Shown: positions 33,666 to 34,148 of the stretch, one piece after another
How positions within the stretch are numbered: position 1 is the stretch's first letter
Layout of the letters: each line of letters begins with the position of its first letter
Assembly: GCF_024700885.2 (NCBI RefSeq)
Contig: NZ_CP117016.1
From: Escherichia coli
GTDB taxonomy: Bacteria; Pseudomonadota; Gammaproteobacteria; Enterobacterales; Enterobacteriaceae
Reading direction: 5' to 3' (one strand)
Length of the DNA: 64,000 nt
Made by a program: the position numbers and the translations under genes
The notes under the pieces: model-generated
Told to the model about the DNA's origin: nothing
Seen by the model: the letters and a program-made list of their open reading frames with translations, nothing else
Database searches by the model: none

Positions 33666-34148
33666 CTATCTGGTCAAAGTGTCGTACTGTTTTTCGCAGA
33701 CTCTTCCGGCTTCGGCTGCCCGGTCAGCATACTCTGCCAGTTGTCTGTTTCTCTCGAGAGATTTGCTGAACACGTCGGCAAGCAAAACTCCGGTGTCTGC
33801 GGCTGACGACCCAGCGCCGACAATGGCGTTATACTGCCTGAGCTGCTCACGGATGGCAACGAGCTGTTGCTGCAACCGGCCAGCGCGAGCGGCAGCATCA
33901 AGAGCATCATTGCGCGCCTGGTCGATCCTCTGCTGAGCTTCACGTTCATTGGTCGCTTTCTCCTGTTCGTAGTGCTGACGAACTATCTCATCTTCAGCTT
34001 TGCGGTCTTCCTTCGCCTGCGCATACCCGGCGTCGTACTGACGACTGCCGTGTGCATTCCAGGCTACAACTCCTGATATGACCAGAACAGCAAGCATCGC
34101 CATGATAACCAACTGTTTCCAGTATGCTTTTGCGAATGCCAAGATCAT
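33666..34148 (-). CDS. Rz-like i-spanin (inner-membrane spanin)
   Basis: N-terminal TM helix then Q/R/E/A-rich coiled-coil; last gene of lysis cassette; 4-nt overlap with endolysin. Confidence 0.6.
33674..33910 (-). CDS. Rz1-like o-spanin embedded out of frame inside the Rz gene
   Basis: Alternative-frame ORF with lipoprotein signal [13 protein letters not shown] and Pro-containing mature part. Confidence 0.45.
   Translation of the reverse strand: MMLLMLPLALAGCSNSSLPSVSSSGSITPLSALGRQPQTPEFCLPTCSANLSRETDNWQSMLTGQPKPEESAKNSTTL

Follow-up and report, generated by a model that had tools for sequence, protein, structure and literature searches.

A predicted two-component spanin with a fully embedded o-spanin gene at the guaA edge of an epsilon15/phiV10-like prophage of Escherichia coli

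We identify, with a probability of about 0.93, a locus on the minus strand of Escherichia coli DNA as the two-component spanin carried by an epsilon15/phiV10-like (Uetakevirus-type) prophage that is integrated at the 3′ end of guaA, and as the last unit of an operon that reads holin-like gene, holin, GH19 endolysin and i-spanin/o-spanin. The stretch analysed, which we call the window, is 64,000 nt long. Spanin function at this locus is predicted from anatomy, position and analogy. A first-pass annotation of the same DNA had proposed a two-component spanin whose o-spanin lies wholly within the i-spanin gene, and our analysis bears out both elements of that proposal: the two products match separate PHROG families, 312 and 11621, each named "Rz-like spanin", and their open reading frames (33666..34148 and 33674..33949, both on the minus strand) are nested in a +1 relationship. 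The parts of the gene pair are as follows.

33666..34148, minus strand: i-spanin gene (Rz-like, 160 aa); from the ORF table, Pfam PF10721 DUF2514 and PHROG 312
34056..34112, minus strand: presumed inner-membrane anchor of the i-spanin, codons 13-31, its sole hydrophobic segment; Kyte-Doolittle
33674..33949, minus strand: o-spanin gene (Rz1-like, 91-aa precursor, 66-aa mature lipoprotein); ORF and PHROG 11621
33872..33883, minus strand: lipobox L-A-G-C, o-spanin codons 23-26, with Cys26 predicted to be lipidated and to begin the mature protein; PROSITE-type rule
33960..33964, minus strand: AGGAG Shine-Dalgarno-like site, 10 nt 5′ of the o-spanin ATG at 33949; sequence context

The o-spanin frame opens at nt 200 of the i-spanin gene and stops 8 nt short of its end, so that it is fully embedded and extends from 0.41 to 0.98 of the i-spanin gene length; its AGGAG site also falls inside the i-spanin coding sequence. 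At the level of sequence the locus thus combines a transmembrane i-spanin, an o-spanin with a lipobox, embedding of one gene in the other, a surrounding lysis cassette and periplasmic cysteines, as expected of the embedded functional class of two-component spanins (Summer 2007; Kongari 2018). Four plus-strand ORFs in the region (33527..33769, 33658..33936, 33867..34076 and 34124..34780) and one on the minus strand (33994..34215) had no match in a PHROG search and are regarded as non-genes. A permissive Rfam scan of 33300..35800 returned no RNA family, and NCBIfam models matched none of the five cassette proteins.

The product of the outer gene aligns with positions 1-160 of the 161 in the PF10721 (DUF2514) profile, at E 4.6e-43 and 147.5 bits where the cut-off is 26, and with PHROG 312 at E 5e-59. 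Its hydrophobicity reaches a 19-residue Kyte-Doolittle maximum of 2.37 from residue 13, and no value above 1.3 occurs past residue 40. An AlphaFold2 model, built with an eight-sequence alignment as input, has a mean pLDDT of 78.6 and consists of helices at residues 2-110 and 115-159, separated by a break at 111-114 (GAGS). Cys151, near the C-terminus, is invariant in an alignment of eight diverse members, and the same alignment contains an ADR motif close to the C-terminus. Computation thus shows the i-spanin as a protein with a single N-terminal membrane helix followed by a modelled two-helix periplasmic domain that carries a conserved C-terminal cysteine.

For the embedded product, the match to PHROG 11621 has an E value of 3.6e-36. 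Database homologues at 98% identity bear a precomputed PF28595 domain; in the Pfam set that we searched, from which PF28595 is absent, no model matched the o-spanin, and a GerPB hit at E 0.058 is meaningless. The 91-aa form conforms to a lipoprotein rule of the PROSITE PS00013 type, which we applied as a regular expression modelled on that entry: K/R occurs among the first seven residues, there are six uncharged residues, and the cysteine is residue 26. The phiV10 record independently cites the same PROSITE entry. All 39 distinct o-spanin variants pass the rule, as does the copy in the window. The residue that follows the lipobox cysteine is Ser in the window, Ser in 38 of the variants and Arg in the remaining one; Asp, the residue of inner-membrane retention, is not present, and from the Ser after Cys26 we infer Lol-dependent sorting of the o-spanin to the outer membrane by the "+2 rule". 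The mature protein of 66 aa is rich in Ser, Pro, Thr and Leu. Its Cys56 and Cys60 make up a C-x-P-x-C motif, and Cys26, Pro50, Cys56 and Cys60 are invariant among eight diverse members. The periplasmic cysteines predicted from the sequences to be on offer for homotypic disulfides are therefore Cys151 of the i-spanin and Cys56 and Cys60 of the o-spanin.

The position at which translation of the o-spanin begins requires a correction. The lipoprotein signal quoted in the first-pass annotation is present as a string and makes up the hydrophobic core and lipobox of a longer signal peptide; as the beginning of the protein it does not stand, and the true start lies 13-14 codons further upstream. Because AGGAG occurs 10 nt upstream of the ATG at 33949 and only the longer form conforms to the lipoprotein rule, we assign the start to this codon and not to the internal ATGs with which the quoted signal begins. 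Initiation at those internal codons, which would give an o-spanin with a short signal, draws on the presence of two in-frame ATGs at 33910 and 33907 and on at least one database gene call, of 78 aa, that starts there (P0023). We consider it very unlikely. In the resulting 77/78-aa protein the cysteine would occupy position 12-13 with no K/R ahead of it, and the lipoprotein rule fails; nothing resembling AGGAG stands within 12 nt of the ATG at 33910; the n-region MNVK(R/L)SRGSTRR is kept in the Escherichia and Salmonella relatives; and the upstream start is the one used in the phiV10 and epsilon15 records.

A long open frame inside another gene may mean little by itself, and we asked how much of the embedded ORF could arise as an accident in a GC-rich, stop-poor gene. 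If it were an accident, the Rz-like protein alone would be made and the outer membrane would be disrupted by something else. When the gene was recoded in 20,000 synonymous-codon shuffles that preserved the i-spanin (Rz) protein, 23% contained an ATG-initiated ORF of at least 91 aa in an alternative frame. This speaks for the accident, and we have rejected ORF length as evidence for an o-spanin on that account; the ORF is also missing from the RefSeq annotation in every E. coli row inspected. A lipoprotein-type signal, however, appeared in just 0.2% of the same shuffles, and the match of the product to PHROG 11621 (E 3.6e-36) points the same way, against an accident.

More importantly, the accident reading is at odds with the variation found among relatives. 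The first-pass annotation had staked its interpretation on the embedded frame being conserved in related phages, and it is, in every relative compared. Our main sample comprised 59 distinct 483-nt i-spanin genes drawn from 80 IMG/VR loci and three phage records, and every one of them has an uninterrupted embedded frame that ends at the same stop, with the lipobox cysteine in place. Any of 67 single-base changes would introduce a stop into one of the two frames, yet the 59 variants contain none of these. A tblastn search with the i-spanin matched 279 phage records, and we examined seven distant relatives with i-spanin identities of 31-87% (epsilon15, Escherichia phage 6947, IME207, SB28, Enterobacter phage EC151, Burkholderia phage Magia and Edwardsiella phage eiAU-183); each of the seven has an embedded lipoprotein in the +1 frame, and the three cysteines and the lipobox are invariant as far as the Burkholderia and Edwardsiella phages. 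Variability at third codon positions of the i-spanin gene is suppressed only within the overlap, with 26/91 positions variable inside it and 41/65 outside (Fisher p = 2e-5). The overlap is also depleted in changes that affect both proteins at once, with 19 of a possible 402 seen, as against 46 of 342 that are silent in one frame (p = 4e-5). Because the frame is open throughout the sample, third positions are constrained and doubly non-synonymous changes are scarce, the pattern of substitution argues that purifying selection acts on both frames. We give the accident next to no weight, and read the embedded ORF as the gene of an o-spanin.

Both the spanin pair and its embedded layout are already known. 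At the DNA level the 2.1-kb cassette is 81-93% identical to 27 phage records, among them ZX5, TL-2011b, phiV10, SPN1S and epsilon15. The RefSeq records of phiV10 (PhiV10p30/PhiV10p30a) and epsilon15 (gp26/Rz1, epsilon15_p06/p07) annotate a 483-nt "Rz-like spanin" gene and a 276-nt embedded one at offsets identical to ours, and a note in the phiV10 record cites a signal-peptidase-II site. The two phages share with the window the +1 frame, the order of the flanking endolysin and holin genes and the adjoining attachment site, and the lipobox and cysteine pattern of the pair is the same in all three. Identity of the cassette DNA to that of the window is 89% for phiV10 and 82% for epsilon15, and the i-spanin is ~87% identical to that of epsilon15; the pairs differ by point substitutions only. 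A stop at 33985 in the window closes a 14-codon upstream extension that roughly half of the relatives keep open. The copy in the window also differs from those of phiV10 and epsilon15 in being a prophage, so that its cassette abuts host DNA.

Kongari et al. 2018 (PMC6139136) grouped phiV10, epsilon15, TL-2011b, SPN1S, SPN9TCW, SPC32H/N, eiAU-183, KS9 and Bcep176 in a "Bcep176" family, which that survey tabulates under "Embedded" for i-spanins and o-spanins alike. The same authors reported that ~70% of embedded o-spanins extend from 0.4-0.5 to 0.9-1.0 of the i-spanin length, a range into which the o-spanin of the window falls. The pair described here passes the PF10721 threshold, matches PHROG 11621 and is orthologous to those of phiV10, epsilon15, TL-2011b and SPN1S, and it belongs to this family. 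Our literature search found no direct experiment on the Bcep176/DUF2514 spanin family. Some database entries of 157 aa combine the DUF2514 and o-spanin domains in a single chain, and programmed frameshifting was considered as their origin and rejected. Because the points at which they switch frame are scattered over approximately residues 27-104, they share no slip site and are indel errors or decayed copies.

Comparison with phage lambda indicates resemblance in design. The lambda Rz and Rz1 sequences that we used were validated by their Pfam matches (PF03245, E 2.6e-54; PF06085, E 2.9e-20) and checked against NC_001416. In its predicted plan of transmembrane segment, helix, linker and helix, with a cysteine near the C-terminus, the i-spanin of the window is like lambda Rz, and its o-spanin is like Rz1 in being a small, Pro/Ser-rich, putative outer-membrane lipoprotein. 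The codon of the lipobox cysteine lies at nearly the same place, nt 274 of the window gene and nt 277 in lambda. The mature o-spanin, in contrast, has 66 aa and two periplasmic cysteines (C-x-P-x-C), whereas that of lambda has 40 aa and one cysteine, and the endolysin in the window is a GH19 enzyme while lambda R is a transglycosylase. Homology to Rz/Rz1 was sought by pairwise BLASTP and hhalign and is not supported: the BLASTP alignments were marginal, and hhalign gave probabilities of 0.6% and 10%. These profile comparisons do not back a common origin with the lambda family. Neither spanin of the window matched PF03245 (Phage_lysis) or PF06085 (Rz1). Because of the missing Pfam matches and the low hhalign probabilities, results obtained with lambda transfer to this locus by analogy only, and the pair is a functional analogue of Rz/Rz1 and not a detectable homologue.

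A patch of DNA similarity of 41-48 nt does link the two systems, between nt 238-278 of the window gene and nt 235-281 of its lambda counterpart. It lies over the codons of the o-spanin signal peptide, which are read in the +1 frame in both, and its score of 35 compares with a codon-shuffle mean of 21 (sd 2.8); none of 500 shuffles reached 35. It is conceivable, if doubtful, that the Bcep176/DUF2514 and lambda Rz/Rz1 spanins share an origin or have swapped this doubly coding segment, which specifies the signal peptide and lipobox of the o-spanin in one frame and NDAL...AAGR of the i-spanin in the other. Shared origin or exchange is no more likely than convergence imposed by a Leu-rich lipoprotein signal that has to be read in both frames. 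Similarity of another kind exists with T4 PseT.3/PseT.2, which also has two components and two conserved periplasmic cysteines in the o-spanin (PMC6139136). The T4 genes are separate, do not form part of a lysis cassette and encode an i-spanin without a periplasmic cysteine (PMC6139136), whereas those of the window are embedded and Cys151 of the i-spanin is invariant.

The spanin pair follows directly on the remaining genes of a lysis cassette, listed here in transcription order.

35059..35463, minus strand: second holin-family membrane protein, 134 aa, with whose gene the cassette begins; Phage_holin_8 E 2.5e-11, PHROG 198 E 3.4e-36
34764..35072, minus strand: holin-family gene, 102 aa, three hydrophobic segments; Phage_holin_3_7 E 5.1e-27, PHROG 217 E 2e-34, Kyte-Doolittle
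34145..34774, minus strand: endolysin, 209 aa, GH19; PHROG 181 E 8.8e-91, Pfam Glyco_hydro_19, PDB 4OK7 (SPN1S endolysin) E 1.7e-115

The cassette of holin, endolysin and spanin that had been suggested earlier is thus found, with a GH19 endolysin and two holin-family genes immediately upstream of the spanins and with overlapping ends. The 134-aa protein equals PhiV10p27 and epsilon15 gp23 in size. Successive genes overlap by 14, 11 and 4 nt in transcription order, the last of these being the ATGA at 34145..34148, in which the endolysin TGA overlaps the i-spanin ATG; this arrangement fits a single operon. Because a Kyte-Doolittle plot of the endolysin has no peak that would mark a hydrophobic segment, the enzyme is not of the signal-anchor-release type.

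The location of this cassette at the prophage edge, also part of the first-pass annotation, is supported by the junction, which we place ~110 bp past the spanin stop. Two features lie at this edge.

33539..33555, no strand assigned: attachment-site core AATCACTCCCACTCAAT, 17 bp, left prophage junction; its reverse complement reads as the end of host guaA, four codons (IEWE) and the stop
33488..33515, minus strand: host-side hairpin with a 12-pair stem, followed by the T-run TTATCTT; terminator scan

Unoccupied E. coli sites, in which yfgI stands next to guaA, match the window up to 33555 only (megablast, 5,426 complete E. coli genomes), and phage homology starts at 33539. The window holds no other copy of the core AATCACTCCCACTCAAT; since this copy is single, the second prophage junction lies beyond base 64000. 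Reading on from the spanin genes in the lysogen, the hairpin at 33488..33515, just outside the prophage, is the first site that resembles a terminator; next to their own attachment site the free phages have one that is almost identical. In phiV10 and epsilon15 the attachment site has the spanin genes on one side and the integrase gene on the other, and integration through a site so placed puts the cassette at one end of the integrated element. The tail fibre, serotype-conversion gene, lysis cassette, attachment site and integrase follow one another in the manner of epsilon15 and phiV10, with the core at the 3′ end of guaA.

Whether the cassette still serves a phage is a separate matter. It might be the relic of a decaying prophage, or a domesticated host lysis module, for protein or vesicle release for example, in which the spanin acts outside the phage life cycle. 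Precedent can be cited for both: frameshifted Rz::Rz1 hybrids occur among database entries, and in Yersinia entomophaga phage-type Rz/Rz1 lysis cassettes are reported to have been co-opted for toxin release. We nevertheless judge decay or domestication highly improbable at this locus. E. coli MLI114 matches the window at 99.97% identity over 31.2 kb. The prophage of that strain, ~39 kb long with guaA and the integrase gene at one end and this cassette at the other, is full-length; it has genes for integrase, repressor-type regulators, replication, terminase, portal, capsid, tail and tail fibre, and none of its listed features is flagged as a pseudogene. In the infectious phages phiV10 and epsilon15 the cassette has exactly the same position, flanked by the tail fibre/serotype-conversion genes and by the attachment site. 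A spanin that belongs to the lysis programme of an epsilon15/phiV10-like prophage remains our preferred interpretation.

By analogy with lambda Rz/Rz1 and T4 PseT.3/PseT.2, which work as summarised in PMC6139136, the following sequence of events may be proposed. The i-spanin would reside in the inner membrane, and the C-terminal parts of the two subunits would bind each other across the periplasm. Homotypic disulfides might stabilise the resulting complex, which the peptidoglycan mesh would hold in check. Release of the soluble endolysin by the holin, followed by degradation of the wall, would then let the complexes collapse, and by fusing the inner with the outer membrane they could complete lysis.

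The locus is present in 517 of the 5,426 complete E. coli genomes (~9.5%), and RefSeq calls the outer gene only, as a "DUF2514 domain-containing protein"; the o-spanin is missing in MLI114 and in every sampled row of the 517 carriers. Prophage lysis cassettes of this type consequently look incomplete to automated pipelines. As the pair has already been catalogued, the locus offers little for discovery, and its practical value lies in annotation. It also provides a clean teaching example of purifying selection on two frames of the same DNA.

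At the locus that encodes the spanin pair (33666..34148), only the outer, i-spanin gene is called in RefSeq, as a 'DUF2514 domain-containing protein'. The locus is present in 517 of 5426 complete E. coli genomes (for example, NZ_CP117013.1 1500364..1500846), and the embedded o-spanin is absent from the RefSeq annotation of strain MLI114 and of every sampled row of the 517 carrier genomes. Roughly half of the relatives have an o-spanin frame that extends upstream by another 14 open codons, from an additional ATG (window equivalent 33950..33991, minus strand). Since this extension is open in only that portion of relatives and is closed in the window by a stop at 33985, the conserved o-spanin start is the ATG at 33949.

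Among the database proteins related to the two spanins (P0004-P0042), many predicted products of ~157 aa begin with the N-terminal part of the i-spanin and then change to the o-spanin frame. A programmed frameshift was considered as their source and rejected, as the positions of the switch are scattered between about residues 27 and 104. These hybrids look like the products of 1-nt indels, arising through assembly errors or in decaying prophages.

Comparison with the lambda Rz/Rz1 locus (L094) identified a short patch of DNA similarity:

33871..33911, minus strand, similar to nucleotides 235-281 of lambda Rz (NC_001416)

The patch covers the signal-peptide and lipobox codons of the o-spanin, lies at an almost equal position in the i-spanin gene of lambda and of the window, and is in the +1 frame in both. 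Its score was 35, as compared with 21 +/- 2.8 for codon shuffles. Despite this patch, profile comparison of the window spanins with lambda Rz/Rz1 finds no homology, and the similarity over the signal-peptide codons may reflect either shared origin or convergence.

Two different holin-family genes, each assigned by family match, stand in tandem upstream of the gene of the soluble GH19 endolysin; either may be the holin, with the other a possible antiholin or accessory protein:

34764..35072, minus strand, holin-family gene (Phage_holin_3_7)
35059..35463, minus strand, holin-family gene (Phage_holin_8)

The prophage also carries a tRNA gene, between its terminase and portal regions, which is annotated in MLI114 as well:

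57570..57646, plus strand, tRNA-Arg (anticodon TCT)

At the guaA end, a host hairpin lies just outside the attachment core:

33488..33515, hairpin AAAACCCTCTGTTACTACAGAGGGTTTT

It is near-identical to the hairpin beside the attachment site of phiV10 (about 2924..2956 in the compared locus, L001) and of epsilon15. With such a hairpin next to the phage attachment site, the phage copy would follow the rebuilt 3′ end of guaA after integration. The phage-borne hairpin appears to imitate the terminator of the host's guaA gene.

Where phiV10 carries oac in its serotype-conversion slot, the window has a hexapeptide-type acyltransferase gene (35644..36768, plus strand), the 3′ end of which is a repeat array:

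36419..36760, plus strand, perfect tandem array of 42 copies of the 8-bp unit GCACAGCA

The encoded tail is AAQQHSST repeated 14 times. Copy number is variable: the MLI114 prophage has 43 units, and this is its sole difference from the window across 31.2 kb. In one IMG/VR relative the array is interrupted, with a longest run of 16 units, and another relative is without it. Downstream of the array a stop codon is reached in all three frames after 2-25 codons, so the array alters the C-terminal tail of the acyltransferase and does not switch the gene off.
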